A stretch of 62,885 bases of DNA, the filler included, from Stramenopiles sp. TOSAG23-2 (taxonomy: Eukaryota), in assembly GCA_900128395.1 (NCBI GenBank). It is 3 parts of 3 records of this genome, joined end to end, with 100 filler letters (N's around TTAATTAATTAA, not from the genome) between each part and the next. Parts side by side here need not be neighbours in the genome. Positions count along the whole stretch, not along the records: positions 21,023 to 41,915 come from LT649547.1; 2 more parts are not named here. One strand, 5' to 3'. The notes beneath the pieces were generated by a model. The model saw nothing but the letters and a program-made list of their open reading frames with translations, was not told where the DNA came from and did no database searches. The position numbers and the translations under genes are program-made. Below are positions 25,187 to 52,467 of the stretch, in pieces. The first letter of the stretch is position 1. The number at the start of each line of letters is the position of its first letter.

Positions 25187-26062
25187 TTAAATAATTGTAC
25201 ATCCACAACCAGTTCCTTTTGGTTCTTTATTATTTTCTCCTTCATCTTCCATTTTTTGTTTATTATTATTATTATTGTTGTTATTGTTATTATTATTATT
25301 ACCCATTTCAATACCATTACCATCTAAGTCAGTATCATTATCGTCCCTAGGAGTATTAACGGTTAAATCAACTTGATTTAAATCTTTGTCAAAGACATTA
25401 CATACTGCCTTACGCATTGCTTCATCAAATATAAGGGTACTTTCAACTGCCACTTGATATGGTGTTTTACCTTCACTATTTTCTACTAAATGATCGGCAC
25501 CACAATCCAATAATATCTTTGCAACACTTGCCCAACCATATTCAGCAGCAAAGTGTAAAGGAGTGGACTCTTTCGCTGCTTTACCAGCTTTTAATGTAAA
25601 ATCTGCGTTCTTATCTAACAACAATTTGGCACAGTCGGCTAAACCTTCAATACAGCATGAATGCAATGGTGTTGTTGAATATTTATTAACAGCATTAACT
25701 TCTGCACCATTATCTAATAAATGTTTCACAATTTCAAAACTTTCATTATGTTGAGAACGTCTACTTACTTTTCTCTTCACTTTATTTGGATTGAAAAGTG
25801 CCTCATGCAATGGTTTATTTTTCAATTTTCCACCATGTGCGTTGACATCAGCATTATTTTTCACTAACACTTTGACATGGCTTAACAAATTATATTTACA
25901 CGCAAGATGCAATAAAGTACCAACTTCCGGGTGAATAATTTTGGCTAAATCTTTATTTTTACCAATTCTTTTTAATGCTTGGTTATAACTACTTTCCGTT
26001 TGTTCTTGATACAATTCAGCAATTTCAAATGTTTCTTGTTCTAATTTATCCTCGTCTGCCAT
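25187..26062 (-). CDS. Ankyrin-repeat protein with C-terminal CaaX box
   Basis: GTLLHLAC, KPLHEAL, TPLHSCC, TPLHFAA repeats; ends GCGCTII. Confidence 0.85.
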   Translation of the reverse strand: MADEDKLEQETFEIAELYQEQTESSYNQALKRIGKNKDLAKIIHPEVGTLLHLACKYNLLSHVKVLVKNNADVNAHGGKLKNKPLHEALFNPNKVKRKVSRRSQHNESFEIVKHLLDNGAEVNAVNKYSTTPLHSCCIEGLADCAKLLLDKNADFTLKAGKAAKESTPLHFAAEYGWASVAKILLDCGADHLVENSEGKTPYQVAVESTLIFDEAMRKAVCNVFDKDLNQVDLTVNTPRDDNDTDLDGNGIEMGNNNNNNNNNNNNNKQKMEDEGENNKEPKGTGCGCTII

Positions 26063-26790
26063 GATGATGATGATGATTTGAATGTTGATATTTTGTTTTT
26101 GTTTTTGTTTTTTACGTTCACGTTCAATTTTTTGTCAGCAATTTCAAATGTTTCTTGTTCTAATTTATCCTCGTCTGCCATGATGATGATGATGATTTGA
26201 ATGTTGATATTTTGTTTTTGTTTTTGTTTTTTGTTCACACACACACACACTAACACATACTAGAGATATTTTCTCGGTGCATGCGATGAATATTTCTATG
26301 TTATTTATTCATTTTTTTCTATCTTTTTTTTTTTCTTTTATTATTTTTTCCCAGAAGATGAAATGGTAATGGTGTGTCTATGCTACCTGGTGGTAATATT
26401 ATTATATACCCTGATGAGAACATGAATGTGGGAGACAGCACCAGCTTTCGCTGGACCGCTACTTTTGTTTTATTGTTGTCAACATTTGTCGTTCCAGCTT
26501 TCGCTGGACCGCTACTTGTTGCGTTTACTGATTCCATTAACCTTTTTCAGTTATAATATTTACCCTTATAGAGTATTTCATTGAAGGATCGAATATCAAG
26601 ATTTGAAATTAAATAAAGAGTTTAAAATAAAATTTTTTTTGGGAAATATATTATCACTTTGTTATAATTATATTTAGAAAATACAAAATACTCAGTACAT
26701 GAATAAACAAAAGTAAATCATTTTCATGTGTCAGAAAAAGCAAGAATAAACAAAAACAAGAACCATATATTAAAAGAAATATATAAGAAG

Positions 26791-27520
26791 ATGGCATCAT
26801 CATTATTATCAAATGAAGAAGTCGATGCCCTTTCTTGGGTAGAACTTAAGAGAAAATGCCAGGAGTCAGGGATACCAGCAGTGGGTGTGGGGAGAACAAA
26901 GGACGTATTGACAACAGAGTTAAAAAATTACTACTACGATAAACGAGCCACAGAGGAAGAAGTGGCGGAAAAAGAAGGTGAAAGTAGTGACAGAGCAGAC
27001 GAACCTCCCCTTTGAGAATGTAGAATGGGAAGATTACAACGGCATCTGCGATGCGGCAACGAAATTAAAATTAAGAGCTCCAAGCATAAAAAAGGTATTA
27101 AACAAAGTGATAGAATTCACTGGTGGATATACCTTTGAGTGGGTAAACGATGTAATTTGGGTAAAAAAGAAAAAAAATTACCCTGATCACCGAGTTTATT
27201 TGAAATCGTATGAAAAGTTACAATTGGTCGAGCTGCACTGTTTGTTTAGAAACAAATGGTCAAAAATTTTGCGCATGGGCAACTTTGAAAGTACAACCAC
27301 TGAAGCAAAATTAAGAGATTGGATCCGTGCCAATCATCCCAGTCGATACAAGGCATCATTCACAAAGTCGTATCATGCAACAAAAACTTGTGTTTGCTGT
27401 GGAGAAAGAGAAGAAATTGATTATCAATTACATGTTTGCAAGCCTGCTAAAAGTTGCAAGAATAAGGATTTGGGGGCATATCTATTTACATTTAGGAATG
27501 CAGTTTTGTTACTAATATAA
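26791..27520 (+). pseudogene. SAP-like + NUMOD1-like + Cys-ribbon protein, interrupted by a +1 frameshift at CCC CTT TGA (27007-27015)
   Basis: LSWVELKRKCQESGIPAVG..KDVLTTEL (SAP/HeH-like); GICDAATKLKL..SIKKVLN..FTGGYTFEW (NUMOD1-like HTH); TKTCVCCGE..HVC..SC. Confidence 0.5.
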
Positions 27521-27777
27521 ATATAGACATTATATTTTCCATTTTATTATCTCTTGAACTAAATTGATTAATTTAGGATGAACACAGCACTAGGTATTGA
27601 CAACTACTACTACTATAGTAGTATACTACTAGTAATAAAAACAAAACACACAAATCTCCTCTTGTGTACATATCACCACAATAAATATACGACTATATAT
27701 AATAGTCGCATCAATCAGACGACTAGATGATAACAAGAGATAAATAGAGACATATATATATATATACAACTACAACC

Positions 27778-28299
27778 ATGACACGATCAGAGGCAGCATT
27801 AAAAAGGCGAGCGGCCAAGCGAAATAGGTCCATCGAGGAACAACGATTAAAAGATAATATGGAAGATGGAAATAAAATTAATAGTAATAATGATAATGTG
27901 AAAAAGCGTAAAATGGAAGATAATAATTATAATAATAATAATACCAATAATAAAAAACATTATAAAATAATATCCAAGGGAGGCTTTAATATTATGGTTT
28001 CTAAACGAAGAACAGATAATAATGGCAATGCAAGTAAAGTATTAATACCAAAATTAAAATGGCCAGAACAAGCTGGCCCAGAACGAATAAAATACAATCA
28101 AAATTTACGTGAAAGGTATAATCAAGATCAAACTAGTTTAGATGACAAAGAATTGGAAAGAGCATTAATTTTAATCAAACGTGATCAACGTAAAAAAGAA
28201 AAAAAATTAAAACAAAAAATTGAACGTGAACGTAAAAAAGAAATGAGACGTATACGTAAAGAAAGACATAATGCATTGATCAATCAATCAAAAAAGTAA
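27778..28299 (+). CDS. Hypothetical basic (Lys/Arg-rich) protein
   Basis: 173-aa ATG ORF with host-like Asn runs and a charged coiled-coil C-terminus. Confidence 0.6.
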   Translation: MTRSEAALKRRAAKRNRSIEEQRLKDNMEDGNKINSNNDNVKKRKMEDNNYNNNNTNNKKHYKIISKGGFNIMVSKRRTDNNGNASKVLIPKLKWPEQAGPERIKYNQNLRERYNQDQTSLDDKELERALILIKRDQRKKEKKLKQKIERERKKEMRRIRKERHNALINQSKK

Positions 28300-28682
28300 T
28301 TTTATCCACCAAAGAAAGAAAAGAGCGTGGAAGTGTGTAACAGTCCCGTGAATTTTAAAAGAGAACAAGAAAGAAAATAAATTTTTAGTGTATCATGATA
28401 TATATATTATATCATACCAGCATAGTCTATTATTGTGTGTTGTTTTATATTTTTTCTTATTTTTTTTATTTAAAACACAAAACAAAAATAAACAATAACA
28501 TATATATGTCACATATATATTATACATATACACAAAAAAACAGAAAGATAAACAAATGAAAATACGATGGCATCTTTAGTATCAAATAATAAATGTAAAA
28601 TAGTAACATGTACAAGCATGGCATGGCCAAATAATTATGGATATTGCACAAAAAAACAGAAAGATAAACAAATGAAAATACG

Positions 28683-31296
28683 ATGGCATCTTTAGTATCA
28701 AATAATAAATGTAAAATAGTAACATGTACAAGCATGGCATGGCCAAATAATTATGGATATTGCAAACTTCATCGTCAAGTTGATAATCAAGAAGAAAAAA
28801 ATAAATTATTATCCAACAATACAATAGCAAATAATCATGAATGTAAAGCACCAAATTGTACTCGTCGCTTTTTGCCAAATAATTATGGATATTGCGAGAT
28901 TCATCGAGAATATGTAAGTCGAAGACAAAAAAAATATAATATTGCCAATCGTTTGGGTGGAATTGTAAATACAGGACGGGATGGACATATAGAAGCAGAA
29001 ACTTTAAATAGATTAAGAAAAGCAGTGCCTGCTGGAGAAATGCCAGATGAGAAATTATTAGATAAACTGGTGAAAGATCCTATAATATCACAACTGAAAG
29101 ATAAAGTCCAAATTTTGAGTTATTACAAGCGAAGAATATACAAGGAAATTAGAAGACGCATAACAGTTTCAATGAAGGAAATAATAAAACACGATATTGA
29201 TGATAATGATTATATTAATGAAGAAATTAAAAAATTAATGAAAGATCCATTGCTTAGTAAACATTGTACAGAGAAATATATACGTAATTACTTCATTCAA
29301 AATACTAAAGGCAGTAATCGTAATAGAGGTAAATACAATCCATTGCCGTATGAGCAACATTTAATTCAAGTACAGCATTTATTATCATTGTGTATGAATG
29401 GACATGACGTTGATGGTGCATCAAATTGTACAAGTACATATTTAAAAATGTTATCATCAGATCTTATTACAAAACGGAACAAAACAATATTGCCGTATAA
29501 TGTTGTTAAAGCTGCATATGAAATAGCGTATCATAAGCAAGATAGCAATCTTATAGTACAATTTTTAAGAACGGTTTTAGAAAATGGAAATAGTTCAACT
29601 TGTTTTTATTATGCTAATATACAAATTGAATTGTTGAAATTTTTACTATCATATAATTTGAATCAAGCGGTAAGCACTGTAAGTTACCATATATTAAATA
29701 CTATAATTATAAATATACTATAGTATTATAGATGTAATATCACAATCAGCTAACAACATATATATATATATATTGTAAACCAACACGTACACACATACAA
29801 AGGCTCGTGATTTTTTTGTTAATACAGATGATTTAAAAGTTAAGAAAGCTTGTATAAATATATTGTTAATTAAATTAGAAAGAGATGATAACAAAGTTAT
29901 TAATGATGAGCTAATAAATGAAATTCGTACATATATTGATAGGACATTAAGAATGCATCCATCAGATGCAGATATATTTAGTAAATTAACCATTTCAAAA
30001 TTAAAGGTAAAAAATAGCGAATTGGAAATGTAGATGCAGATATATTTAGTAAATTAACCATTTCAAAATTAAAGGTAAAAAATAGCGAATTGGAAATGTA
30101 TGCAAGTAAATATTTAAAAAGTGCCAAAAAGATGGACAAATTACCTATTAGTGGTATTAAAGTGTCTTTGTATATATTGATGAATGGATTAAACAAGATG
30201 CACAGCAAAACAAATAATGGCCCTGGGAAAAACGACCGTCGTTCTGCACCGGAAATACCAAATGAAAAGGCTCTCCTTGATGGAACGGAAAGACGGACTA
30301 CTTTGATGATTCGTAATATCCCAAACAAATATACGCAATCCATGCTTTTGGAGGAATTAAACGAAGTTTTACATCGTAAATTTGATTTTGTTTATTTGCC
30401 TATTGATTTTAGAAGGGAAACAAATATGGGTTACGCATTTATTAATATGATTGATCCAGTTGCAACTGTTATTTTAGTGAAGCAGTTTCATGGTAAAGGT
30501 TGGCGTTCTAGTAAAAGTGAAAAGATTTGTCAAATTTCTTACGCACGCATACAGGGTAAACATGCATTAGTAGAACAATTTCGCAATTCCACTGTTATGT
30601 CCAAGAAAAAACAGTATCATCCTATTATTTTTCATAGCTCCGGTCATTCTATCGGTATGCCAGAGCTATTTCCTGGCGATACAACTAATACGTTTCTGGT
30701 AAAATTGCAAAATTTTTATGAAAATATATCAAAAGGAAAAGATGTAAATTTTTATTTAAATCCTAGAAACAGACGATACAACTAATACGTTTCTGGTAAA
30801 ATTGCAAAATTTTTATGAAAATATATCAAAAGGAAAAGATGTAAATTTTTATTTAAATCCTAGAAACAGACAAAGTAAAGAAAAAATCGTTATGTGGGAC
30901 AAAAAAATAGATAAAATTATGAAATGCAGTAAACATATTGCAAAAAGAGACCCGACAAATCTATATGCTTTGGGTTTATTAGAGCAACATTATAACTGGT
31001 CATGTTCTATCAATACAAATGAATTTATGAAAAGCATGAGAAATCAAGTTAGCGCATGTAAATTGATTGAAACAAAGGAATGGCTCAAATATTGCGTAAA
31101 TGCGATTGAATATGGATCTGAAACATCAAACCAAATTCACCACTTTCAGCGATTTTTAAAATATGCACAAAAAGTTAAAGAAGACGATCTAGAATGGTTT
31201 GATAATTTTGCTGAATCGAAACTTTGGTGGAAAGATGTTTACTCCCACCATACATATTTTCGCGAAGTAGAAAAATTGTTGTTTACAGGAAGGTAA
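28683..31296 (+). CDS. TAF1A/Rrn11-like helical protein with N-terminal Cys/His repeats and an internal Mei2-type RRM; intron 29670-29802; frame broken by 68-nt and 97-nt duplications
   Basis: Two C-x4-C...PNNYGYC-x2-H repeats. HLIQVQHLLSLCMNGHDVDGA resembles the Rrn11/TAF1A N-terminal motif (recollection only). A phase-0 GTAAGC..AAG intron joins LNQA|ARDFF. Removing duplicates 29964-30031 and 30677-30773 restores a single frame to 31296. Confidence 0.55.
30222..30677 (+). other. Mei2-like C-terminal RRM (RRM_2) coding segment embedded in frame
   Basis: RTTLMIRNIPNKYTQ..FDFVYLPIDF..NMGYAFIN..SEKICQISYARIQG..LVEQFRNS is the Mei2/AML RRM3 signature. Confidence 0.9.
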
Positions 31297-31813
31297 AGGG
31301 ATGTAAAAATATATATATATATAACATATATAATACATATATATATATATATATATTATTTACTCCCACCATACATATTTTCGCGAAGTAGAAAAATTGT
31401 TGTTTACAGGAAGGTAAAGGGATGTAAAAATATATATATATATAACATATATCATACATATATATATATATATATTATTATTTTGGAGAGTGTACGTTGG
31501 AATTATTAAAACATATCATATGATTATATGGAGAGAGGTAAAAATTAAAAAAATATTTAAAATTAAATGCCTGTGTAAAAAATTATATATATATATAATA
31601 TATTATATTAATGTATATATATAATAATTTACGCATAATTACGATTCGTACTCTACATTATGATGTGTAATTTCACTTCTTAACAAATACATGCCGCCAA
31701 ACAATTCCATCTGAAGATAAATAACGTTCCGGATCCATTTGATTAATCTCTCTTCCTGGTGGAATACCTAAAAAATGCTTTTCATTATTATTACCAATAG
31801 GAACTTCAATACG

Positions 31814-32866
31814 TTACTTCTTAACAAATACATGCCGCCAAACAATTCCATCTGAAGATAAATAACGTTCCGGATCCATTTGATTAATCTCTCTTCCTGG
31901 TGGAATACCTAAAAAATGCTTTTCATTATTATTACCAATAGGAACTTCAATACGTTTTACATCATTTTCAACAACAATTTTCGTAAAGGAAGGATAATAT
32001 TGTAGGCCATCTTCTTCATCTTCATCTCTTACCATGTTCTTATCGTTATTGTGATCATCCTGATACCATGATGGTTTCCAATTTAAAATATTTTCCGGTT
32101 CAATCGATTTGAAATTTTCTATACCAATTGGACTAAAAAATATTTTATGCATATGATCGAATGTCATTTCATTATCACTTTGTATATAAACAATTGTATC
32201 TTTTTCAACCCCATCACTTAAATAGTTAAGAACCGTTTCATTTATCATACGGCGTTTAATTTGTCGACGTTTAAAGCATGGATCTGGATTTAAAATAGAG
32301 ATGGATTGAATGCTTCCATTTCTTTTTGGAAATTCTTGTAAAAATTCTTTAAAAGATCCTTTTTTTGAGATAATATTTGCATGTATAAAGTGCAGATTAT
32401 GTTGATAGTTGATTAATAACTTTTCTCGTTTTTTAAAACATTTCTCAATTTGTCTTTTTTGGATTTCAAGACCAATAAAATTCGTATTTGGAAACATTTT
32501 AGCCAATCCAAACAGATACACGCCATTATGAGACCCAACATCAATATGAAAAGCTTTGTCCATACGATTATGATTTTCAAAATAATCTAATTCCTTATTT
32601 ACATCTATTTCTAAATTGAAATTTGTTTTACTTAATGGATTTACATGTTGTCTTGTTTTTACATATTGTCTAATATATTGTTTTACATGATTAGTTCGTT
32701 GTCGATTCAAAACAATTCGAGTGATGGGGGAGACGATGTTGAAATTTGTTTTACTTAATGGATTTACATGTTGTCTTGTTTTTACATATTGTCTAATATA
32801 TTGTTTTACATGATTAGTTCGTTGTCGATTCAAAACAATTCGAGTGATGGGGGAGACGATGACCAT
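31814..32866 (-). CDS. trmB: tRNA (guanine-N7)-methyltransferase, bacterial TrmB type (probably organellar); 123-nt in-frame N-terminal duplication
   Basis: RQHVNPL, IDVGS..G.YL, FIGLEI, NPDPCFKRRQIKRR, YIQSD motifs. Confidence 0.85.
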   Translation of the reverse strand: MVIVSPITRIVLNRQRTNHVKQYIRQYVKTRQHVNPLSKTNFNIVSPITRIVLNRQRTNHVKQYIRQYVKTRQHVNPLSKTNFNLEIDVNKELDYFENHNRMDKAFHIDVGSHNGVYLFGLAKMFPNTNFIGLEIQKRQIEKCFKKREKLLINYQHNLHFIHANIISKKGSFKEFLQEFPKRNGSIQSISILNPDPCFKRRQIKRRMINETVLNYLSDGVEKDTIVYIQSDNEMTFDHMHKIFFSPIGIENFKSIEPENILNWKPSWYQDDHNNDKNMVRDEDEEDGLQYYPSFTKIVVENDVKRIEVPIGNNNEKHFLGIPPGREINQMDPERYLSSDGIVWRHVFVKK

Positions 32867-33118
32867 AATGAATGATACATTTAGATGTTGTTGTTATTTG
32901 GTTGAGCTGGCGGTCTATGTGTAGCGAATGAGATGCGGCATTCGCTATATATATTTTTAATTTATTGTTTATTAAAATTTGTGCATTTTATTTTTTGAGA
33001 TGATGATGGCACGATGCACCGATGGAAAAAAAAAAATCTTTTATTAAGGCGATTTTGAAATCTGTAAATTCCTTAAATGAAATATAGAACTTATTTAAGG
33101 AGGATATGTACTGAAAAT

Positions 33119-33757
33119 CTAATCACGTCTCGACAAAACCGTATAAATTATTTCCATGATACCTTCCTGCTTGCTGGCAATATTTTCGAGAACAGAATGG
33201 ATATATCTGGAAGTGGATATTTGTTGAAATTGCTGAGTCTGCATCTGTGCTAATTGTTGCAACATTTTGCCAACCCCTCCCCTAGACCTAGCTGAAGGCA
33301 CAATTTCCGAATCTACCCGTGAGCTTCTGCCCCAAGGACTAAGTTGAGGTGAGCGAGATCCCACTGATCCACTAGATCGGCTAAAAAAGGATCCCGCCTC
33401 TAATTCATTTCCCCGACGATTCAGGAAGGAACCAACCTCAGATTCGCCATACCTAGAACTTCCACTAGATGTGCTACTACTGTTGTTCATCCTCAAGTTC
33501 TCTGCATGTTTGGCTTGCATACTTGCCGGTCCTAAAAACGTTCCCAATTGCTCCCTGACTCTGCTTAATTTTAATTGTTTTAAGTGTGCTAAATGTGTCA
33601 GCTCTTGTTCATGTTGCATGGTTTTTGCTTTCATTTTTGATTGCAAACTGGCAATGCATTGAATATGCTTGGTATTGGTACTGATCTTTTTCTTGCAGAA
33701 GCCAAAATCTGTTGCAGCAATGGTATATGTGGAGGCAACTGCCCAGAAGTGGTACAA
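33119..33757 (-). CDS. Hypothetical protein or degenerate gene in a GC-richer island
   Basis: 212-codon open frame with coiled-coil and Ser/Gly-rich parts; the start is uncertain. Confidence 0.35.
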   Translation of the reverse strand: MYHFWAVASTYTIAATDFGFCKKKISTNTKHIQCIASLQSKMKAKTMQHEQELTHLAHLKQLKLSRVREQLGTFLGPASMQAKHAENLRMNNSSSTSSGSSRYGESEVGSFLNRRGNELEAGSFFSRSSGSVGSRSPQLSPWGRSSRVDSEIVPSARSRGGVGKMLQQLAQMQTQQFQQISTSRYIHSVLENIASKQEGIMEIIYTVLSRRD

Positions 33758-33927
33758 TAATGTTGTTCATGGTTATATTGCAACTGGAGGAAGGTTAATC
33801 CATGAAGGAAATTAATATTATTGGAGAAGACGGTACGAATTTCTGTACAAATGTTACAATTCAGAAATAATGCAAAATTCAAGAAATTATATGAAGCCAT
33901 TATGTACATCAACAGAGATTTTCAGTG

Positions 33928-34120
33928 AAAAGTGGCTCAGGCAAGAAAAGCTCAGGTTACAGCGATGGTGCAGGCACAGGCTCAGGCAAAAGCTCAGGCA
34001 GCTCAGGCTCAGGAAAGAAAAGTGGCTCAGGCTCAGGCAAAAGCTCAGGAGGCTCAGGCAAAAGCTCAGGCAGCTCTCAGGCTCAGGAAAGAAAAGTGGC
34101 CCAGGCAAGAAAAGCTCAGC
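33928..34120. repeat. GCTCAG(G)-based minisatellite
   Basis: Recurring ggctcaggcaa(g)aaaagctcag / gaaaagtggctcagg units; all three + frames stay open. Confidence 0.8.
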
Positions 34121-34390
34121 GGAAAAAAAAAGGAAATCGTCGACTACAACTACATTGATGAGGTATCAGCACGTTTTTTGCATTGGTACCTCTTCTTGTA
34201 CATTAAACCAAAACATGTAATTGGCATGTTGTGGGCCAAATGTAATGGGGCATTTGCTTGGTTCTATATCTGACATGATGCTATTTCGATGGTATAACAA
34301 ATCCAAATTTTCATGTTACTCATTAGGGTTTACAGTTGGTACACATTTTTATTATTATTCCGACTATATTCTTCAATACACTTTAACTTA

Positions 34391-34703
34391 CAGATGTTTG
34401 CACCGAACGTGGGACAGGCCTCACGCGCCGGGCGCACAGAAAAAAAAAAAAAAGATTACACTACACCACTCGATCTTTTAGACAATAGCATGAAATAGCA
34501 TTAAGAAGCGTAATTTTGCTAAAAAATAATACCTTATACTTTACTTGATGTGTTCTATCTGGTTTTGTTGTTGGTTAGATCATCAAAATTGCTTTCTTAA
34601 TGCTATTTAATGCTATTGTGTAAAGATCGAGTCGTGTAGTGTAATTTTTTTTTTTTTTGAACACGGCGCGCGAGGCCTGTCCCACGTTCGGTGCAAACAT
34701 CTG
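34391..34703. mobile_element. MITE, Tc1/mariner-like (TA target-site duplication, about 128-bp imperfect TIRs)
   Basis: TA|CAGATGTTTGCACCGAACGTGGGACAGGCCTC ... GAGGCCTGTCCCACGTTCGGTGCAAACATCTG|TA. Inverted similarity continues to about 34518/34583; no transposase ORF. Confidence 0.85.
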
Positions 34704-34782
34704 TACTTGTACAGTTACCCTGGTTGCCCTGATGGCCTATTATTTATAAATATAAAATTCATATATATATATATCGATATAT

Positions 34783-36216
34783 ATGGTATTGATTGAAAAT
34801 AAAGAGATATATGTATATTTTCTAAAGAAAAAGAAAGACAGATGTCATTCTCAGTTGGCAAACAACGTAATAATAATAATTATGAAAATAACCAAAAAAA
34901 AAAAGTATAAACATGAAAGAAACAAATTTAAAAATAGAAATAACATGATTTTGCCAAATTGCATTAAAATTATCGTTTTCACCGTCTTTATTATTACAAT
35001 AACTTTTTCCTCATGTATTACTATATTATATTTCCAAAAATCACAACAATTTTCCATCATGAACCAAAGGTATATCAATACACGTTTTAATTTAGATCGA
35101 ATGAAAGAAATAGAAGAGGAAAGAGCTGTCAAAATGTATAACCAAAATAATGTTACCTATAGTAATAATAATAATAAACAAAATGTACCATCCTCACATC
35201 AACAGATTAAAAATAAGAAGAATAATGATGATGATGATGAAGAAAAAATACCAGATGTACTAATTTTAACAATATTAAAAGATAGTGAATCATTTGGTCA
35301 TAGAAGAAAAATAAATAGTTATATAAAAATGATACAAAGGCTTTCACATAAGTACGATCCAAAATTAATATCAATTGGTATGTTAGTAAGTGATAAAAGC
35401 ACATATGAAGATATTGAAAATGCATGGAAGAAACCAAATATGCTTTCACATAAGTACGATCCAAAATTAATATCAATTGGTATGTTAGTAAGTGATAAAA
35501 GCACATATGAAGATATTGAAAATGCATGGAAGAAACCAAATATTGCAAACTATTTTAATAAAATTAAAATTTTTCATAAAAGACTTGATGATGAAAGTAT
35601 ATTAGGTGGACACAATGATCGTTTACGACATGCAGCTGGAATACAAAAAAAAAGAAGATCCATTTTAGCAAGATATAGAAATTTATTATTATCATTAACA
35701 TTAGGTAATATTGGTTCAACTGTAAAATATGTTCTTTGGATTGATGCTGATATGGAAATGATACCGGCAAATATTATTACAACATTTCAAAAAACAAATA
35801 AAAAGATAGTTACTTTACATACGAAACGTAATCATGAAACATATGATTTAAATACATGGAAAGGTCCTCGAATACATCCATCAATGGGAGAATTAGAAGG
35901 TATTAAAAAAGGTCGATTATTTATTCCAAGGCCATCAAATGGTTTGAAACATATAGATCAATTTACGAAAAACGATATAGGTTCTGATAATTTAGTTCAA
36001 TTAGATTCTGTCGGTGGCACTGTTTTATGGGTAAATGCAGATGTACATCGTCAAGGAATCAATTTTCCACCATATTATGTGATTGGGACCGAATGGGATC
36101 GCCCTGGTTGGGATGGAATAGAAACTGAAGGTATATGTTACATAGCAGATCAAGTATATGGTGGGAAAAATTGTTATGGATTTCCAAATATAATTGCTGA
36201 ACATCATGCGTCATAG
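34783..36216 (+). CDS. Anp1/Mnn9/Van1-family (GT62) glycosyltransferase, type II membrane protein; true start probably 34882 or 34945; 102-nt in-frame duplication 35340-35543
   Basis: N-terminal TM helix; RRSILARYRN, YVLWIDAD (DxD), YDLNTW, LDSVGGT..VHRQGINFP, IETEG. Confidence 0.85.
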   Translation: MVLIENKEIYVYFLKKKKDRCHSQLANNVIIIIMKITKKKKYKHERNKFKNRNNMILPNCIKIIVFTVFIITITFSSCITILYFQKSQQFSIMNQRYINTRFNLDRMKEIEEERAVKMYNQNNVTYSNNNNKQNVPSSHQQIKNKKNNDDDDEEKIPDVLILTILKDSESFGHRRKINSYIKMIQRLSHKYDPKLISIGMLVSDKSTYEDIENAWKKPNMLSHKYDPKLISIGMLVSDKSTYEDIENAWKKPNIANYFNKIKIFHKRLDDESILGGHNDRLRHAAGIQKKRRSILARYRNLLLSLTLGNIGSTVKYVLWIDADMEMIPANIITTFQKTNKKIVTLHTKRNHETYDLNTWKGPRIHPSMGELEGIKKGRLFIPRPSNGLKHIDQFTKNDIGSDNLVQLDSVGGTVLWVNADVHRQGINFPPYYVIGTEWDRPGWDGIETEGICYIADQVYGGKNCYGFPNIIAEHHAS

Positions 36217-36493
36217 AGAGATAAAAGAAGGAGGGTGCATGTGTGTGTAAAATGTCTAGAGAGAGAGTTTCTGGTGTGGGTGGAGATATGGATTTCCAAA
36301 TATAATTGCTGAACATCATGCGTCATAGAGAGATAAAAGAAGGAGGGTGCATGTGTGTGTAAAATGTCTAGAGAGAGAGTTTCTGGTGTGGGTGGAGAAA
36401 AACTACGTGGTATGGTATTTGGAGATATATTGTTATTGTGCCTTTTGTGGTATATAAAATGTTCTCTTACTCATATATGTGGTATATATATTT

Positions 36494-36524
<31 letters not shown>

Positions 36525-36897
36525 ATTTTTATTTTGATAAAAAATATTTTACTCGTACAAACTTCGGTATACATAATTATTACGCGTAATACTTCGTATT
36601 ATAGATATATTACGTACGTCGTATATGATAAAAGAATTATTCTTGAGATTGAGTATTTGAGCAATATCATATTATTTTACCACGCGGGAAGTTATAATAA
36701 CTTTTACGTAGATTTTAACCATATATCATTATATATCACTTCGTAATATGATAAGTGCATATCATTTTATATGATATATACACACACTCTAAAAATCAAT
36801 TTGATCTAATTTTTTCGATAAATATGTATCTGCATCATCATATGTCGGTGGAGCATTTTCATTGGATTTGCTACTACTACTACTACATACACACACT

Positions 36898-38527
36898 CTA
36901 AAAATCAATTTGATCTAATTTTTTCGATAAATATGTATCTGCATCATCATATGTCGGTGGAGCATTTTCATTGGATTTGCTACTACTACTACTACTACTA
37001 TTACGATTATTATTATTACGATCCTCACTACTATCATTTTTGCTAACTTTATCCAATTGCAATGAAAAATACATCATTTCATTTCTAGTTTTTTCCCATT
37101 TGCTATAATTTCTTGGTTCAAAAATATATTCAACACTTGCTGGTAATACACCAATACGTGGTCGAACTCGTTTTTTTGTACATTCATTTAATGTATATAA
37201 TATTGAATGTATTATTTCACGTCTTTTCATAATAACATCCATATGATCACCATTTGTATTCACAGATAATGATGATGTATCGTAATCATCTTTATAAAAT
37301 CGAAGTTTTTGGAACAAATCACGCAATTCTTCACACCTAGATTTAATATATTCACTATGTGAAAACAAACGAATGATATTTAATTCATCCCATGCATTTT
37401 CACTTGCTTTTTTTTTCCCCTTCTTCTTCTTATTGTTATCATCATCTTTTTGATTTTTACTACTATAATCATTATTATTCTTCATCATTGTTTTAAAATC
37501 TTCAATATCAACTTTATCTGCTAAATTTGTATGCAATGGTGAGATACATACATGCCATTTATTTAACGTTTCAATAACACGTGTTAATGTTACGAATGGA
37601 TCTTCAATCGGTCGTTCGTTATCATTATTATTATTGTTCTGTTTACTATTATTGCCATTTATTTAACGTTTCAATAACACGTGTTAATGTTACGAATGGA
37701 TCTTCAATCGGTCGTTCGTTATCATTATTATTATTGTTCTGTTTACTATTATTTTTGTTGTTGTTGTTACTATTATTTTTGTTGTTGTTGTTATTATTAT
37801 TATTATTATAATTTGGATGTACCAATTCATACATTTCATGTTTCATGAGAAAAGATGGATTTGTTTCCAAAACACTATGGGTACATAATGCTAACGTAAT
37901 CCGTTCTAATAATTTTTCAATACGTTCAACTGAATTATAAAACCTAGATGATGCAGCTACCATTTTTAATGTTTTTACCATACCTGGAATAGATGTATAT
38001 ACATTTTTTAATGGTCCTTTCGCCAAAGCTTTGAATGGTTTTTCTAATATAGTTAAATATTTACTATTCCATGTTGCTTCTACAGATAAACGACGTAAAG
38101 ATGCACATGCTTCTCTTAATTTTTCCCCTGATGTGGAAGATATCATAGACAATACACGTATTGTCCATTGTACATCGCCATTCTTCTGATTTGCTTCTTT
38201 TGATAATGGTGTTAAATAAATCGAACGTTTCTTCCAAAAATATATTTCTTCCAAAGGAAGTTCAAATACAGAAGCATCGTCAGGTACTAATCGTGCACTA
38301 GTTACGTAACTTACAGCAACTTGTATTGTTTCCAACCAATCTTTACAATATGTTTCCAATACCTGAATAAGATTTGGTGACCCTATGACAATATCTGCCT
38401 CCGTATGTGGTAAATCACTTGGTAATTTCGTTAACGTTGGTGTTGGTGGAATATTATTATTATTATTATTATTATTATTATGAACAGAAAATGAAGTTTT
38501 CATACCACCACCTGTAATTGATGTCAT
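36898..38527 (-). CDS. Stand-alone dynein heavy chain N-terminal (DHC_N1)-like protein; frame broken by 100-nt duplication 37553-37752
   Basis: PLEEIYFWKKR, EATWNSKYLTILEKPF, SSRFYNSVERIEKLLERI, RLFSHSEYIKSRCEEL. Removing one duplicate joins ORFs 37649-38527 and 36898-37536. Confidence 0.7.
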
Positions 38528-39086
38528 GATGATGAGGTGTTTTATTTTTTGGGGTGGGTGGGGGGTGGTAAGGGGAAAGGGAGGAAAAGGGATGGAAATA
38601 ATTATATATCAATTATATATATTACACAACAAAGAATCTGAGCAGTTCTTGACGATGATATCAAGTGTACTATTATTTCCTAAACGGTTATACTGTAGGA
38701 AAAGGGATGGAAATAATTATATATCAATTATATATATTACACAACAAAGAATCTGAGCAGTTCTTGACGATGATATCAAGTGTACTATTATTTCCTAAAC
38801 GGTTATACTGTAATACTCCCTCTCTCCAGACGTTCACAATCACTTTTTATTATTTTTTTTTTAATTAATTAATAATTTTTTTTAATTTTCAAAAAGTGCA
38901 AAACTCATTTGATTTTGCCATTGCTGCATTTCTATCTAGAGAATCTCATCATCATTTCCAATGCTGTGTGTGTATTAATCCCCTTTCCCAAGATCTATTC
39001 TCCTGCTATGTCCATATTAATGATAAAAAATGATATATATACCAAAAAAATACATTTTTGTGTAACACGTAATGTGTTGATGAAGT

Positions 39087-39181
39087 GTCCTAGTAGCGCA
39101 ACGGTTAACGCGTCTGCCTACGGAGCAGGTACGTACTAGACTACAAAATGAAATAGAAAAAAACGAACACAGTCTAACATA
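39087..39181 (+). repeat. Partial duplicate of the tRNA-Arg 5' exon and most of its intron (122-nt tandem duplication 39060-39181 / 39182-39303)
   Basis: Identical to 39209-39303; lacks the 3' exon. Confidence 0.85.
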
Positions 39182-39208
39182 GTGTAACACGTAATGTGTT
39201 GATGAAGT

Positions 39209-39349
39209 GTCCTAGTAGCGCAACGGTTAACGCGTCTGCCTACGGAGCAGGTACGTACTAGACTACAAAATGAAATAGAAAAAAACGAACACAGTCTAAC
39301 ATAAAAACCATTATATAGAAGATTCAGGGTTCAAATCCCTGCTGGGACT
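39209..39349 (+). tRNA. trnR-ACG: tRNA-Arg(ACG) with a 68-nt intron (39251-39318) at position 42/43
   Basis: Exons 39209-39250 and 39319-39349 give a 73-nt cloverleaf: acceptor GTCCTAG/CTGGGAC, anticodon arm TCTGC-CTACGGA-GCAGA, T arm CAGGG-TTCAAAT-CCCTG. A box TAGCGCAACGG; B box GGTTCAAATCC. Confidence 0.9.
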
Positions 39350-39357
39350 TTCCTTAA

Positions 39358-39364
39358 TTTTTTT
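39358..39364 (+). terminator. Putative Pol III oligo-T terminator of the tRNA gene
   Basis: T7 run 9 nt after the discriminator base. Confidence 0.6.
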
Positions 39365-39840
39365 GTTTTTTCTAGTGCTATTACGATGGTCAACTTTTCT
39401 ATTTTAAGGAAAATGAAACTTGCAAACGTGGCCCCAGAGAGGAACTCGGATAAATATGGAAGAACATGTTCTTCCATATTTATTAGATTTATTGCAGATG
39501 TTATATATCATATGATATGATATGACATTATATTATAATAAAACAAAAAAAATATTATTTTTGTTTGTTTTATCTTTTTTTTTCTTTTCCTAGTAGGTAC
39601 GATTGGGGATTGGATTACATCTCTGAGATAGAATATTGAGCATATACATATAGTCTTTTTCATTGGGAGGTAAAATTATTTTAAAAATATATCACACTTA
39701 AAGGTTTGTGTAATTATTATTATATATATATTTATTAACAACTTAGATATCACCAACTATATATCCATCCGGGATGAACACACAGGGGGGTTTCTGTGAT
39801 TTAGCAGTTTTATCTTTGAAACAAATGGCCAACAAGAAAT

Positions 39841-40887
39841 TCAAAAATCGTCCAACTCCATTTCGTCAATAATATCATCATCCTCATTTACCTTCACAAA
39901 TTGCTCATGTCTAATCGTTTTTTGACTACCATCTTTTAGAGTTAATGTAAGTATTACATTACGTAAATCATCAATCGGGATATTGTTAATGCATACCGTC
40001 GTGCATTGAAGCGATTGCAAATATTTTACCACTTTTACACGATACCATAACTCTGTCCCATGCTCGTATAGCGTTCCAAAACTATCGTGGAAATATCGAA
40101 AGGCAAAATCCAGTACAGTGCCAACGCCTTTATGCACAACCTCGTTCAGTAGAATAGACCGGGCATCATGTTTCAATGCATAATTTACTAAAAACAACAG
40201 CAATTCAAAGCCATTTTCATCTTTACAGTTGTCAACAGCAGCATGCAACATATTTATTTGGGGATCGCGATGAAGCAAAAGTGTCGGACTAGCATTTATC
40301 TCTTCATCAACGTCTAACAAATATTTAACTATGTCTTGTTTACCGAAATGTATCGCCGTGAAAAAGCCACAGTAAGTTAGCTGTGTTTGTGTATTGCAAC
40401 CAGGTAGAGTTAAACAACGAAAAAAATGTTCCGTTCCACGAGTATAACTCACACATTTGGTGACGAACGTCATATCTCCTTTTTCACATGCACGGCAAAT
40501 TGGGTTGTAACCGGGGTGTTGTCGATGATACTCTAAGAAAAGATTATTTCCACTTTCATATTTCATTTTTCCAACTAAATCTTTCTTATATGCATCTACC
40601 GTGTTGCCACCGTGCAAGATGGTAAATTGCTTGATAAACGAAGTTAATGCTAAACTATGCATATCTGATGCCATGAGATACTCCAATATAATTTTCTCTA
40701 CTAGGTTTTCTGGTAAAATAACTAGAAAATGATATGAAGGATACCATGATTCGATCGTTCGTTGTTTTAATAATTGGCTAGGACTTAAGGTAGAACGTTT
40801 TGAATGTGGTTTCTGGTTTATATCCAGGGATTTAAAGCCTACTTTATTATTTTCATTTACATCATGTTCTTCTAATTTAGAAAGCAT
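39841..40887 (-). CDS. Divergent ankyrin-repeat protein with an F-box-like N-terminal segment
   Basis: LPENLVEKIILEYLMASDMHSL (F-box-like); NPICRACEKGD, FTAIHFGKQDIVKYLL, MLHAAVD, GTVLDFA (ankyrin-like). Confidence 0.6.
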   Translation of the reverse strand: MLSKLEEHDVNENNKVGFKSLDINQKPHSKRSTLSPSQLLKQRTIESWYPSYHFLVILPENLVEKIILEYLMASDMHSLALTSFIKQFTILHGGNTVDAYKKDLVGKMKYESGNNLFLEYHRQHPGYNPICRACEKGDMTFVTKCVSYTRGTEHFFRCLTLPGCNTQTQLTYCGFFTAIHFGKQDIVKYLLDVDEEINASPTLLLHRDPQINMLHAAVDNCKDENGFELLLFLVNYALKHDARSILLNEVVHKGVGTVLDFAFRYFHDSFGTLYEHGTELWYRVKVVKYLQSLQCTTVCINNIPIDDLRNVILTLTLKDGSQKTIRHEQFVKVNEDDDIIDEMELDDF

Positions 40888-41673
40888 TTATACATCCAAA
40901 ATATTGATCTCTCCCTTTCTATATATGTATATATATATATATTTATTTACGTATAATATTTTCAAATATATTTTTATATGTTATTAAATATAGTGAATGT
41001 GTTTCGTATATATTTGTTATATGTATTTCATCAATCTATCGATCGATTGAAAAGTAGTAGCATTTGTGTGTGTTCGATTTCTTTTTGTTAGCGTCGTGTG
41101 TCCCGACTACTTTTTTGTTTTTTGTTTGCACATTTGTCGTTTCTCTTTTTCTATATATGTGTTTGTCATATCTCTCTATGTGCATTACTTGTTTATCTAG
41201 TTGAAATGAGGACAGTCTCTCATGGAAAATGAGAAAGTCGAATTCTTTCTTTAGCTGCTGACGAAGAAATATTTGCTTAATAATATGACTTGAACACGCA
41301 TTAACATATTAATATGATGCCTTCTTTCTCTTCGACTCCCGCAATGCTATCGATAGTAAATCGTATTTTACCTTAACCTGATGATGGTTAATTGGTCAAT
41401 TTCATCAAAGAAGAAGCCAAATAAATTAAGAAGTTGAATTACAGAAAACAGAAAAAAAAGATTTGATTGTGTTGTGAAAATATAAATATAATTGCTGTTG
41501 CTAACCATTGGAAGAAATAAAAAAAAACCAGAAAGATATAACCCCCCGCGGACGAATATCATTGTTATATATATATATATTTGTGAAAATATAAATATAA
41601 TTGCTGTTGCTAACCATTGGAAGAAATAAAAAAAAACCAGAAAGATATAACCCCCCGCGGACGAATATCATTG

Positions 41674-41704
<31 letters not shown>

Positions 41705-41915: not shown

Positions 41916-42015
41916 NNNNNNNNNNNNNNNNNNNNNNNNNNNNNNNNNNNNNNNNNNNNTTAATTAATTAANNNNNNNNNNNNNNNNNNNNNNNNNNNNN
42001 NNNNNNNNNNNNNNN
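41916..42015. other. Artificial contig spacer (N44-TTAATTAATTAA-N44)
   Basis: Same 100-nt linker as 20923-21022. Confidence 0.98.
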
Positions 42016-47066: not shown

Positions 47067-47988
47067 ATGGAAGATTTTGATACAACTATTAAAATAATAG
47101 TAGTAGGAAATGGGCATGTTGGAAAAACTTCATTAACAACACGTTATTGTAAAGATACATATAGTGGTGATTATAAGAAAACTATTGGGTAAGTATTGCA
47201 AATTTTTATTTCAATTTCAAAAATCAATGAATATATACTAACTACAACAAACGCTGCGGTATTATTTTGATCTTATCAGTGCAAATTATTTAGAAAAAAG
47301 AGATATAGAATTAGAAACCGGTGATATTGTCAATATGATGATATACGATACGGCTGGACAAGAAGAATATGGTGCATTGACACGGTCGCATTTTCATGGC
47401 GCTGGTGCAGCAATTTTAGTATTTTCATCCACTGATCGCAATTCATTTTTGGCAATTAAAGATTGGAAAGAACGAGTAATAGCTGATTGTGACGAAAATA
47501 TACCAATCGTGATTGTACAAAGTAAAGTGGATTTATTAGCATTAGGTTCAGAAGAAAACCCAGAGGAGACTATTGATACAAATATTATTTCGGCAAAGGA
47601 AATCAATGATATGGTTACAAGTTTAAATTTGCCATTGTTTAAAGTGAGCTCCTCAAATAATTACAATGTCAATGAAGTATTTGAAAGTATTTGCGAGATG
47701 TATGTTACTGGTGGACATAAATTTGATGAATCTTTCTTATCTAATATAAGTGAAACAAGTCCTGAAAAAATAAATGTACAAAACAGTGGCGACAATAATA
47801 ATAATGATGATAGCAATGATAGAAATAATAATGTAAATAATAAAAGTAATACAAGGGAATTTTTAAAAAGTAGAATTAAAGGTATAAGCAGTGATGGGAC
47901 TATTAGTAATAAACGGATTGATTTAAATCAACCATCAAGAAGAAGGACTGGTGGAAAAAAAAGTAGATCCATATGTAGGATATCGTAA
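47067..47988 (+). CDS. RAB23: Rab23-like small GTPase; intron 47189-47279
   Basis: Exon 1 MEDFDTTIKIIVVGNGHVGKTSLTTRYCK..DYKKTIG; 91-nt GTAAGT..ACTAAC..CAG phase-2 intron; DTAGQEE, QSKVDL; C-terminal CRIS. Confidence 0.88.
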
Positions 47989-50003: not shown

Positions 50004-52433
50004 TTACCCACCTTTATTAACAACGACGGTATAACTTTTACTGCTGCGCTTAAATTGATTGTAAAAATAATAAAATCCCATCATGACTACTAAACACAAT
50101 GCGCTTAAAGCAAGCATAGCCATTGGTCCTTTTAAAACAAAACCCCCACTTTCATTCATATTTCCTTTTAGATTTGCATTTTTTACATCTACTTTTGCAC
50201 CACTTACACCTCCGGATAGAAGGTTTCCAGCAGTAACTTTTTTTGTTGCTTCAATTAATTTTTCTTGCATTTTTAAAATAGCATTTTTTGCTACATCAGC
50301 CGGTGATGCATCGACACTTTCTTTAAAATATTTTTTCGTTTTGAATTCTGCATTTTTACAATCTTTTGACAACTTTTCGAAATTTTCTTGCAAACAAAGT
50401 CTTGTGCGACCTTGTCCGGGTTTTACATCTTTACAAAGCTTTTCTTTATCGGATTTACATTTTTTGGCTAGCTCCATGTTCGAACGCCCATCTTGCAATT
50501 GATATTGCATTGCAAAGTATATTCCACGTCTACAATTTTTCGCTTTTGGTTCTTTCTTTGGGATTTTACCGATATTATCTGCTAAACAATTTACTACTGT
50601 GGAAGGATCATCAATTGCTTTATCACTACAATATTGTTGTACATAATCACGACAACTCCTTCGGATGCGATAATTGCGTTTCCAATCTTTGGATTGCATA
50701 ACCATGGTAGTTGATAAAACAGATCGACAAGTTTTGCCAATATCTTTTGGTGCATCTACCATTTTTGCAAATAAACAATTTAAAACTTGACCGCTGGCTT
50801 TTGGTAATTCCTTACAAAATTTTTCAATACCAGGCTTACATGCTTTAAATGCTTTGTAATTGATACGGATATCTTGCAATTCAAATTTCACTTGTTCCTC
50901 CACTGCTTCTTTGCATTCTAATGTCAATAATTTTTTATCTAATTTTTCTTTTAAACATTCCTTTGCTTTTCCATTGTCTTGTTCATTTTGAGCTGGAGTG
51001 TTAATTTCCTCTTCTGTTCCATCTTCTTTCGTCGCCTTTGCCTTTGCAGCACCTTTCAATGTTTCAGGTAATTTAATTTTACACAAATTTTCTAAATCAT
51101 CTTTACATTTTCCCATTAACCATGGCTGAGCAGCAATATCTTCCGCTTCATCGGCCATTTCATCAAATTCTTCCTTCCTACATGCCTCCGATAATTCTTT
51201 CATATGAGATCGTAAGCAATGATGCGTTCTTCCACCTCCCGGTTTCACCAATGCACAAAATTTAGTTAAATCAGCTTTACATGCTTTTGCTATTCCAGGA
51301 GATGCTTTTAAAAAAACAGCAGCAACGCGTTTTTCAACTACTACAAGTCTTTTGCAACTCTCGCCCATTTGCTTGTGATGTAAATTTCTCTTTAAGCATT
51401 TTAACTTTTCCTCCGCTTTCACATCATCGCATAGTAAATTTAATTCTTTTTTACATTTTTTCGTCAAAATTGGTTTTAAACGCACATCTTTCGCTTCCGT
51501 TTCCAATTCTTTAAACTCTGCTTTTTTGCACAAAGGAGATAATTGTTTTAAATGATTTCTTAAACATGCAATAACAGCACCTCCTTCTTGCACATCTACA
51601 CCGCCATCTTTCTTATCTTTTAAACAAAATGACGTTAAATCACCTTGGCGATAATGTAACAACATTGGCTTGGCAGTATATGTTTTTGATTCATCCACTA
51701 GCTCTTGCATTTTTGCTTTCCTGCATATTGAGTTTAACATTTTAAAATTTTGCATTAAACATACATTATCGCGCCCATTCCCTTTTTCAACAACGCGATC
51801 ATTGAAATCTGTAATTTGCTTATCCGGTCCACAAAATTTTATTAAATCTGCTTTGCACAGCTTGGCAACTTTTCCAGATGCCTTAGCAAATAATGATGCC
51901 ACTTTGATATCACTTTGTAGCTCTTTCTTGCACATTGGTGACATTTTCTTATCGTTATAATGATCTTTTAAGCAACGCAATCTTCTACCATCACCTTTTG
52001 GTATATCTTTGCAAAATCGAAACATGTCCACTCGACATTTCATAAACAAATTGAATTTTAAACGTATATCTGAACGTTCCTCTTTAATCTGTTTAAATTC
52101 AGCTGCTTTACAAGCAGGGGATAATTTCTTCAAGTTTTTTTTTAAACATGCCAGTGCTTTACCATCATCCTGTTTATTTTCTTTTTCCAATTTTACAACA
52201 TCGATTTGACATATATCTTTCAAATCGTTTTGACATGCTTTTGATAAATTTGTTTTTGCATTGATATCTTTTGCTTCATTCAATTGTTGTTCAAATTCTG
52301 CTTGTTTACATGCTTTTGATACTTTGTCCTTATTATCTCGTAAACATTTATGTGTACGTCCTTTACCTGGTTTTACATTTGAACAGAATTTTTTTAAATC
52401 ATCTTTACAATTATTATGTATTCCTGGCAAGAC
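50004..52433 (-). CDS. GLG1: Golgi apparatus protein 1-like (Cys-rich GLG1 repeats), last exon only
   Basis: Repeated C..D..KFC..VKPG.GR...CL....LS..C units, a C-terminal TM helix and a short tail; begins after an intron acceptor in the (AT)n tract. Confidence 0.8.
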   Translation of the reverse strand, partial: VLPGIHNNCKDDLKKFCSNVKPGKGRTHKCLRDNKDKVSKACKQAEFEQQLNEAKDINAKTNLSKACQNDLKDICQIDVVKLEKENKQDDGKALACLKKNLKKLSPACKAAEFKQIKEERSDIRLKFNLFMKCRVDMFRFCKDIPKGDGRRLRCLKDHYNDKKMSPMCKKELQSDIKVASLFAKASGKVAKLCKADLIKFCGPDKQITDFNDRVVEKGNGRDNVCLMQNFKMLNSICRKAKMQELVDESKTYTAKPMLLHYRQGDLTSFCLKDKKDGGVDVQEGGAVIACLRNHLKQLSPLCKKAEFKELETEAKDVRLKPILTKKCKKELNLLCDDVKAEEKLKCLKRNLHHKQMGESCKRLVVVEKRVAAVFLKASPGIAKACKADLTKFCALVKPGGGRTHHCLRSHMKELSEACRKEEFDEMADEAEDIAAQPWLMGKCKDDLENLCKIKLPETLKGAAKAKATKEDGTEEEINTPAQNEQDNGKAKECLKEKLDKKLLTLECKEAVEEQVKFELQDIRINYKAFKACKPGIEKFCKELPKASGQVLNCLFAKMVDAPKDIGKTCRSVLSTTMVMQSKDWKRNYRIRRSCRDYVQQYCSDKAIDDPSTVVNCLADNIGKIPKKEPKAKNCRRGIYFAMQYQLQDGRSNMELAKKCKSDKEKLCKDVKPGQGRTRLCLQENFEKLSKDCKNAEFKTKKYFKESVDASPADVAKNAILKMQEKLIEATKKVTAGNLLSGGVSGAKVDVKNANLKGNMNESGGFVLKGPMAMLALSALCLVVMMGFYYFYNQFKRSSKSYTVVVNKGG

Positions 52434-52467
52434 CTATATAATATATATATATATATATATTATATAG

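Follow-up and report, generated by a model that had tools for sequence, protein, structure and literature searches.

What interrupts the tRNA-Arg(ACG) gene at this locus, and could a sequence with the signals of a spliceosomal intron have come to lie within a tRNA? The question concerns a stretch of 62,885 nt from Stramenopiles sp. TOSAG23-2, which was analyzed over its whole length and is called the window below; an earlier note, made from the same letters, had described in it a tRNA gene split by an insert with GT-AG ends. Introns in tRNA genes at non-canonical positions, bounded by bulge-helix-bulge (BHB) motifs, occur in archaea, Cyanidioschyzon, nucleomorphs and red algae. Canonical eukaryotic tRNA introns, as outlined in PMC12530127, lie at position 37/38, are cut by TSEN and have their exons joined by a tRNA ligase. 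Spliceosomal introns figure in PMC5855946 as species-specific occupants of fungal U1, U2, U5 and U6 snRNA genes and of ascomycete rRNA genes, and the U6 gene of S. pombe, which is transcribed by Pol III, is given there as a case in which the intron is removed by the spliceosome. The known hosts of spliceosomal introns are mRNA genes, snRNA genes and a few rRNA genes; tRNA genes are a host class for which our full-text literature searches found no published report of such an intron, in line with the earlier note, which knew of no established case. The answer that we reach, and hold to be rather likely, is that a spliceosomal-type (U2-type, GT-AG) intron was newly gained between tRNA positions 42 and 43 in this strain only; from its letters we infer both how it would have arrived and how it may be spliced.

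Judged by its sequence, the segment 39209-39349 of the forward strand is a Pol III-type tRNA-Arg(ACG) gene in which type 2 promoter elements are present. The Rfam tRNA model RF00005 matches it at 43.1 bits, where 29 is the gathering threshold, and models the 68 nt as an insertion that in the alignment adjoins the variable region of the tRNA. When 39251-39318 were deleted by coordinates, ARAGORN called a 73-nt tRNA-Arg(acg) with an acceptor stem of 7 bp and an anticodon stem of 5 bp (TCTGC/GCAGA), in agreement with the 73-nt cloverleaf that the earlier note had obtained by the same removal, and its coordinates and letters for the locus proved accurate. Exon 1 holds the 5' strand of the acceptor stem, the D arm with the A box, and the anticodon stem-loop as far as G42; exon 2 opens with A43 and holds the variable loop, the T arm with the B box, the 3' strand of the acceptor stem and the discriminator. 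The A box, TAGCGCAACGG (tRNA positions 8-18), and the B box, GGTTCAAATCC (positions 52-62), were read directly, and we take them to be such from their consensus sequences. Downstream stands a terminator-like T stretch (Table 1), and a T6 run occupies the corresponding place in an orthologue from a metagenome, L040. In its default mode ARAGORN called zero tRNAs in the 62,885-nt window, the unspliced form going uncalled without the intron mode. This bears out the earlier suggestion that standard tRNA finders miss such genes, a point that matters for gene finding. The intron mode returned 'tRNA-Ser(act) i(36,68)', a call that we rejected as a product of the fixed intron position of the tool. An Rfam search of the window at E-values up to 1 found no second tRNA. 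A loopless hairpin with 24-nt arms that are 88% complementary lies at 39443-39490, about 95 nt beyond the tRNA gene on its 3' side; it gives a weak mir-302-like Rfam match below threshold, and the run X3 introduced below is deleted in places there.

Table 1. Features at the tRNA-Arg(ACG) locus, with positions along the window
Feature	Position	Strand	Basis
Artefactual upstream copy of the 122-nt duplication, made up of 5' flank (27 nt), exon 1 and the beginning of the intron (53 nt)	39060..39181	+	
tRNA exon 1 (positions 1-42)	39209..39250	+	Rfam RF00005 43.1 bits; ARAGORN on the spliced form
68-nt spliceosomal-type intron	39251..39318	+	Splice signals; absent in four orthologous sequences
Putative 5' splice site GTACGT, preceded by exon CAG	39251..39256	+	Read directly
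5' arm TAGACT of the 6-bp intron stem	39259..39264	+	RNAfold, weak
Branch-point-like CTAAC, branch A 39299, 19 nt from the intron 3' end	39296..39300	+	Read directly
Putative 3' splice site TAG	39316..39318	+	Read directly; X3 joint, GT..AG ends
tRNA exon 2 (positions 43-73)	39319..39349	+	Rfam; ARAGORN; orthologue comparison
Pol III terminator-like T7 (39358-39364), G, T6 (39366-39371)	39358..39371	+	Read directly

The insert, which is composed of 36 A, 13 T, 11 C and 8 G with T runs of at most 2, shows the anatomy expected of a U2-type GT-AG spliceosomal intron. The GTACGT, the CTAAC with its A 19 nt from the end, the TAG and the T7 at 39358-39364, all pointed out in the earlier note, were found there on direct reading. 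The tRNA itself fixes the borders, within which the 2-nt AG repeated at both ends of the insert leaves three registers, so that the cut could lie at 40/41, 41/42 or 42/43. The earlier placement at 42/43 stands as the sole register in which GT..AG borders are obtained, while the other two are equally compatible with the repeated AG. The site that hosts the insert, AG/A in the anticodon stem, is proto-splice-like, as had been proposed. The 6-bp stem described earlier does appear when the intron is folded alone in RNAfold, where TAGACT/AGTCTA is the sole helix, but at -3.3 kcal/mol it is weak; its partner strand AGTCTA (39293-39298) overlaps the branch motif.

How often such a combination arises by chance was estimated from all 68-mers of the window on both strands (124,966), each scored for GTRHGT as its first letters, AG as its last, and between them a CTAAY whose A stands 8-45 nt before the end. 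Out of the 124,966, the insert alone passes all three; multiplied together, the frequencies of the single signals give 3.7e-6, GTRHGT by itself beginning 0.15% of the window 68-mers. The low T count of the insert is mildly unusual (4.2% of window 68-mers). The absence of T4 from it is uninformative, for 47% of window 68-mers are likewise free of T4, and the idea that T runs had been avoided under a Pol III constraint was dropped on this ground.

A Ras/Rab-family gene of the window (47068-47988; Pfam Ras) contains an mRNA intron at 47189-47279, which begins G/GTAAGT, has TACTAAC at a distance of 38 nt from the 3' site, and ends in CAG. The earlier note had assigned this intron to Rab23 and had likened the tRNA insert to it. 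The intron exists with the GTAAGT, TACTAAC and CAG signals, its gene is supported as far as the Ras/Rab family, and the shared signal grammar is correct for a comparison with n = 1 mRNA intron. When the window was scanned for GT..AG segments that separate two open frames and fuse them on removal, one clear coding intron was found, seen twice owing to a palindrome described below, and about 20 further long ORFs seem uninterrupted, which suggests an intron-poor genome with yeast-like, strict splice signals.

The history of the insert can be approached through relatives. Contigs of four runs were aligned to 39182-39800, namely X3, X4 (a seawater metagenome) and the RNA-labelled X6 and X15; the last two have no contig on 39182-39748 and are uninformative on transcription or splicing. 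The runs that contain the surrounding 3.4 kb are marine. The kind of X3 is unstated, and we took it as DNA because its longest contig reaches 75.5 kb and it covers intergenic DNA. Contig 2 of X3 (3212 nt) matches 39185-39248 and 39317-39496, with flanks 90-95% alike, and joins 39248 to 39317, so that exactly 68 nt with GT..AG ends are skipped; contig 9 of X4 joins the two sides in the same way and shows 0 differing letters across 39317-39362. None of the four runs has a contig over the interior of the insert, which is known from the window's own assembly alone.

Metagenome contigs were also scanned exactly with the last 23 nt of exon 1, giving 68 matches at 64 loci. The start of exon 2 directly follows the exon-1 match in 68 of 68, three of which end at the contig end after 5-14 nt. 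Two of the 64 loci, L001 and L040, share the 5' flank of the window and represent the orthologous locus; they are the sole members of the lineage among the 64. With the window duplications collapsed, 3822 positions of L001 align to the window at 97.4% identity, and the 68 nt are the largest window-only insertion in this alignment; L040 is 78-95% identical in the alignable flanking pieces. The exons of the window are the same as those of these intronless orthologues, at 73/73 positions in L040 and at the 56/56 positions present in L001: exon 1 is 100% identical to both, and exon 2 agrees at 31/31 in L040 and at all 14 nt present in L001. As a tRNA, L040 scores 62.5 bits with Rfam. Two unrelated metagenome loci differ in their tRNA content: L012 (643-720) is a tRNA-Arg(ACG) pseudogene with an internal T-arm deletion, and L033 (333-709) holds three tandem tRNA-Arg(ACG) copies 171-183 nt apart.

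The insert is absent to the base in 4/4 independent orthologous sequences (X3, X4, L001 and L040). The earlier note had left it as a question whether an intronless Arg(ACG) gene exists, and these relatives supply one in the orthologous gene itself; the same four sequences speak against its wider suggestion that the lineage matures tRNAs by the spliceosome. A single recent, strain-specific gain on the branch of the window appears to be the simplest history, since four sequences of graded relatedness are without the insert and its precise loss would need at least two events. That the insertion is real and of spliceosomal type we regard as highly probable.

In its features the insert resembles the introns of snRNA and rRNA genes as they are described in PMC5855946, with canonical 5', branch and 3' signals inside the gene of a structured non-coding RNA that is not an mRNA; as in U6, the host gene is a Pol III gene, and like many of these introns the insertion is species-specific and otherwise unconserved. 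Unlike the snRNA-gene introns, it lies in a tRNA, which is no component of the spliceosome, and its gain has been caught as a difference between strains 97% alike. Moreover, removal by the spliceosome has been demonstrated for the U6 intron of S. pombe, whereas the tRNA insert is known from DNA sequence alone.

The gene of a relative may have received an insert of its own. Contig 8 of X4 (315 nt, on window 39201-39250) has a 5' flank that is a diverged version of the window flank, then exon 1 and, uninterrupted at 42/43, the first 13 nt of exon 2 up to T-loop position 55, after which come letters beginning GTAAGT. The continuation is a 30-letter consensus of two contig ends with an agreement of 0.98; a GTRHGT is expected at a given place with a frequency of 0.0015 in the window. 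On this thin evidence, the 73-bp gene may in the relative represented by contig 8 have gained another spliceosomal-type insert, independently of the first.

Does the interrupted gene still give a tRNA? If it does, Pol III would read through the insert, which has no T run of 4 or more; the spliceosome would recognise GUACGU, CUAAC and UAG in the transcript; the intron would leave as a lariat; and the A43:U27 pair and the 73-nt tRNA would be restored. In favor of this proposal are the intact signals, the lack of T4 (a weak point), the second insert that a relative seems to tolerate, and a hint that the gene is single-copy. This hint comes from two observations, namely that all tRNA-Arg(ACG) contexts seen are of one locus (the window, L001, L040, contig 2 of X3, and contigs 8 and 9 of X4), and that the X3 contig (3.2 kb) crosses the tRNA gene unbroken at a depth of 10.6, its neighbours standing at 8.8-12.3. 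A repeated 73-mer would normally break an assembly contig. The cell needs this tRNA, since in nine long ORFs 57% of the Arg codons (237 of 416) are CGT, CGC or CGA. Against splicing is the rarity of the allele, which is missing from all four other orthologous sequences. Pol III transcripts are, with the exception of U6, generally poor splicing substrates. Provided that the insertion is real and of spliceosomal type, splicing to a working tRNA seems to us to fall just short of an even chance, and a dead allele to have about an even chance.

The alternative that survives best is phrased in terms of fate: the insertion would be real and unspliced, a fresh null tolerated by diploidy or by another Arg(ACG) gene, and on its way to being lost. 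Taken over all the uncertainties of the locus it is a serious contender, though we would not expect it to be the correct one. Absence of the insert from 4/4 relatives marks a rare or very young allele, and this fits a deleterious or neutral insertion too; an allele too young for decay would keep intact exons whether or not it works, which makes these neutral, and the missing T4 is matched by nearly half of the 68-mers in the window. The dead allele fits less easily with one locus in all contexts, with the unbroken X3 contig and its hint of a single copy, with the 57% of Arg codons that call for this tRNA, and with the tolerance suggested by the second intron-like insert in the copy of a relative.

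A fuller form of the splicing proposal holds that the spliceosome removes the intron from a Pol III transcript to yield the sole tRNA-Arg(ACG), and that tRNA genes are recurrent landing sites of transposing spliceosomal introns in this marine lineage. Its basis is the occurrence of two different inserts in one 73-bp gene among about six sampled alleles, and we consider it tentative and somewhat unlikely. If the allele is functional, the spliceosome would act on a Pol III tRNA precursor and its substrate range would be widened; if this is also the sole tRNA-Arg(ACG) and landing is recurrent, it would be the first spliceosomal tRNA intron. The recurrent landing, if true, would offer a natural snapshot of intron transposition by the spliceosome where selection cannot have shaped the splice signals.

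The origin of the insert is a separate matter from its fate. In a tRNA gene nothing would select for splice signals, nor has the insert existed long enough for them to evolve in it, from which it follows that they came with the insert; on arrival it would already have possessed all three, the 5' splice site, the branch point and the 3' splice site. It lies in sense orientation with borders that are exactly GT and AG, and ready-made signals together with exact borders are the signature expected of reverse splicing. The best reading is therefore in our view that of a transposed spliceosomal intron in a Pol III gene, with a putative route of arrival in which an intron, once excised, would have been put back by the spliceosome through reverse splicing, the target being either the transcript of the tRNA gene or the displaced DNA strand of that gene during transcription, and the product then being fixed in DNA. 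Both variants have counterparts in the literature: snRNA-gene introns are proposed in PMC5855946 to have originated by reverse splicing and subsequent copying into DNA, and reverse splicing into the displaced DNA strand of a gene under transcription is discussed in PMC11146597 for short introners without transposon features. A very young insert with perfect signals fits what reverse splicing or intron transposition predicts, and a tRNA host makes a clean case for intron movement, which is hard to show in protein genes.

A search for the donor returned, within the window, matches to the insert itself and to its artefactual copy only, and in the 64 metagenome loci (190,287 bases) matches of at most 15 nt. 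The 22-23-mers of the intron are absent from the viral and the bacterial and archaeal contigs searched, collections that are unsuited to the question and give this absence little meaning.

Introners that move at the DNA level are the main alternative route of intron gain (PMC11282704), and the insert could on this account be a copy of a short introner-type DNA transposon, inserted where a tRNA gene offers open chromatin, and not a reverse-spliced intron. Like the introners of marine algae and fungi as portrayed in PMC11146597 and PMC11282704, it is short (<200 nt), non-coding and a recent GT-AG gain with presence/absence between near-identical strains, being absent in contig 2 of X3, contig 9 of X4, L001 and L040; the host is marine, introners are commonest in aquatic microbes, and a class of <200 nt without TIR or TSD is on record (PMC11146597, PMC11282704). 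In contrast to introners, no family of copies was found, a second copy being absent from the 62.9-kb window and the 64 loci, and its target is a Pol III gene with no selection for splicing signals, so that the signals came with the insert. A comparison of the insert ends by eye found no terminal inverted repeat. The target-site repeat that flanks it, which might be credited to a transposase, is the 2-nt AG only, and such a repeat arises from any insertion at an AG site. The genome is, in addition, intron-poor, with one coding intron in the window. Taken together these points make an introner copy an unlikely source, and we retain the transposed spliceosomal intron as the preferred reading.

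The window does contain artefacts of its own, and these bear on whether the 68 nt belong to the cell. The segments 39060-39181 and 39182-39303 are 100% identical, forming a 122-nt tandem duplication that is single-copy in L001, L040 and contig 2 of X3; the upstream continuation of X3 corresponds to window 39033-39062, which places X3 among the sequences without the duplication. In all, 24,059-41,689 holds 17 tandem duplications, each of two copies that are identical or nearly so, 68-173 nt in size and spaced one per 0.3-2.3 kb. Six of them, in 35340-39303, are single-copy in L001 and a seventh (41472-41689) is single-copy in L040. We regard the tandem duplications as artefacts because these seven comparable ones are single-copy in relatives, and by this comparison of sequences the upstream copy of exon 1 is an assembly artefact. 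The duplications break reading frames in 24,059-41,689. A perfect palindrome occupies 42016-62885 (arms of 10,435 nt, 0 mismatches, centre at 52450/52451); it begins right after the N gap at 41916-42015, extends to the end of the window and probably arose as a chimera during amplification or through faulty scaffolding. Weak microRNA-like Rfam matches at 52408-52493 are explained by it.

The 68 nt might by analogy be a product of assembly or amplification, absent from the real tRNA gene of the cell. The 17 duplications and the palindrome with its 10,435-nt arms lend this some weight, as do the single-copy state in relatives of all seven duplications covered there and the lack of cover for the interior of the insert in the four runs. 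However, the artefacts seen are local duplications and inversions, and for the insert there is no match elsewhere in the window apart from its artefactual copy; its ends restore the tRNA to the base and three splice signals are in place, a combination of about 4e-6 by chance; and the junction of exon 1 and intron stands in both copies of the 122-nt duplication, which we read as the unmerged ends of two assembly pieces, so that two pieces would show the junction. An artefact is on these grounds very improbable.

With the canonical tRNA introns the insert has in common that it is an intervening sequence in a nuclear Pol III tRNA gene. Unlike them, it lies at 42/43 (or 40/41 or 41/42) and not at 37/38, falls in the 3' strand of the anticodon stem, leaves the anticodon loop intact in exon 1, and is unconserved even in the closest relatives. 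A reading with a canonical 37/38 intron, in which exon 2 would start from TATAGA, was tried and rejected, as it creates a C31-A39 mismatch and the intronless orthologues give the true mature sequence. Like BHB tRNA introns, the insert interrupts a tRNA gene outside 37/38; unlike them, it has GT, CTAAC and AG, and no BHB can be drawn around it. At 68 nt it is also longer than BHB tRNA introns usually are. In none of the three registers does the central 4-bp helix predicted for a BHB reach more than 2/4 pairs, nor do the outer and inner helices, and whether the MFE fold is taken or the tRNA arms are imposed as constraints, the 3' border falls in a long unpaired stretch. The folding of the precursor envisaged in the earlier note has thus turned up no BHB motif in any register, and the insert is, as far as these models go, not a tRNA-type (TSEN/BHB) intron. 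That a tRNA splicing endonuclease cuts it at a BHB or relaxed BHB, for which one could invoke the non-canonical intron positions known in some algae, is hardly tenable when central and flanking helices reach at most 2/4 pairs, the 3' site is left unpaired in the MFE and constrained folds, and the splice signals would have to be a coincidence of about 4e-6.

Elsewhere in the window, an ORF resembling hexose-6-phosphate dehydrogenase runs without interruption through 22444-24108. Among named proteins it is closest to GDH/6PGL of animals, with an identity of about 40% that is insufficient to name the group of the organism, and unnamed metagenome proteins match it at 99%, 78% and 71%.
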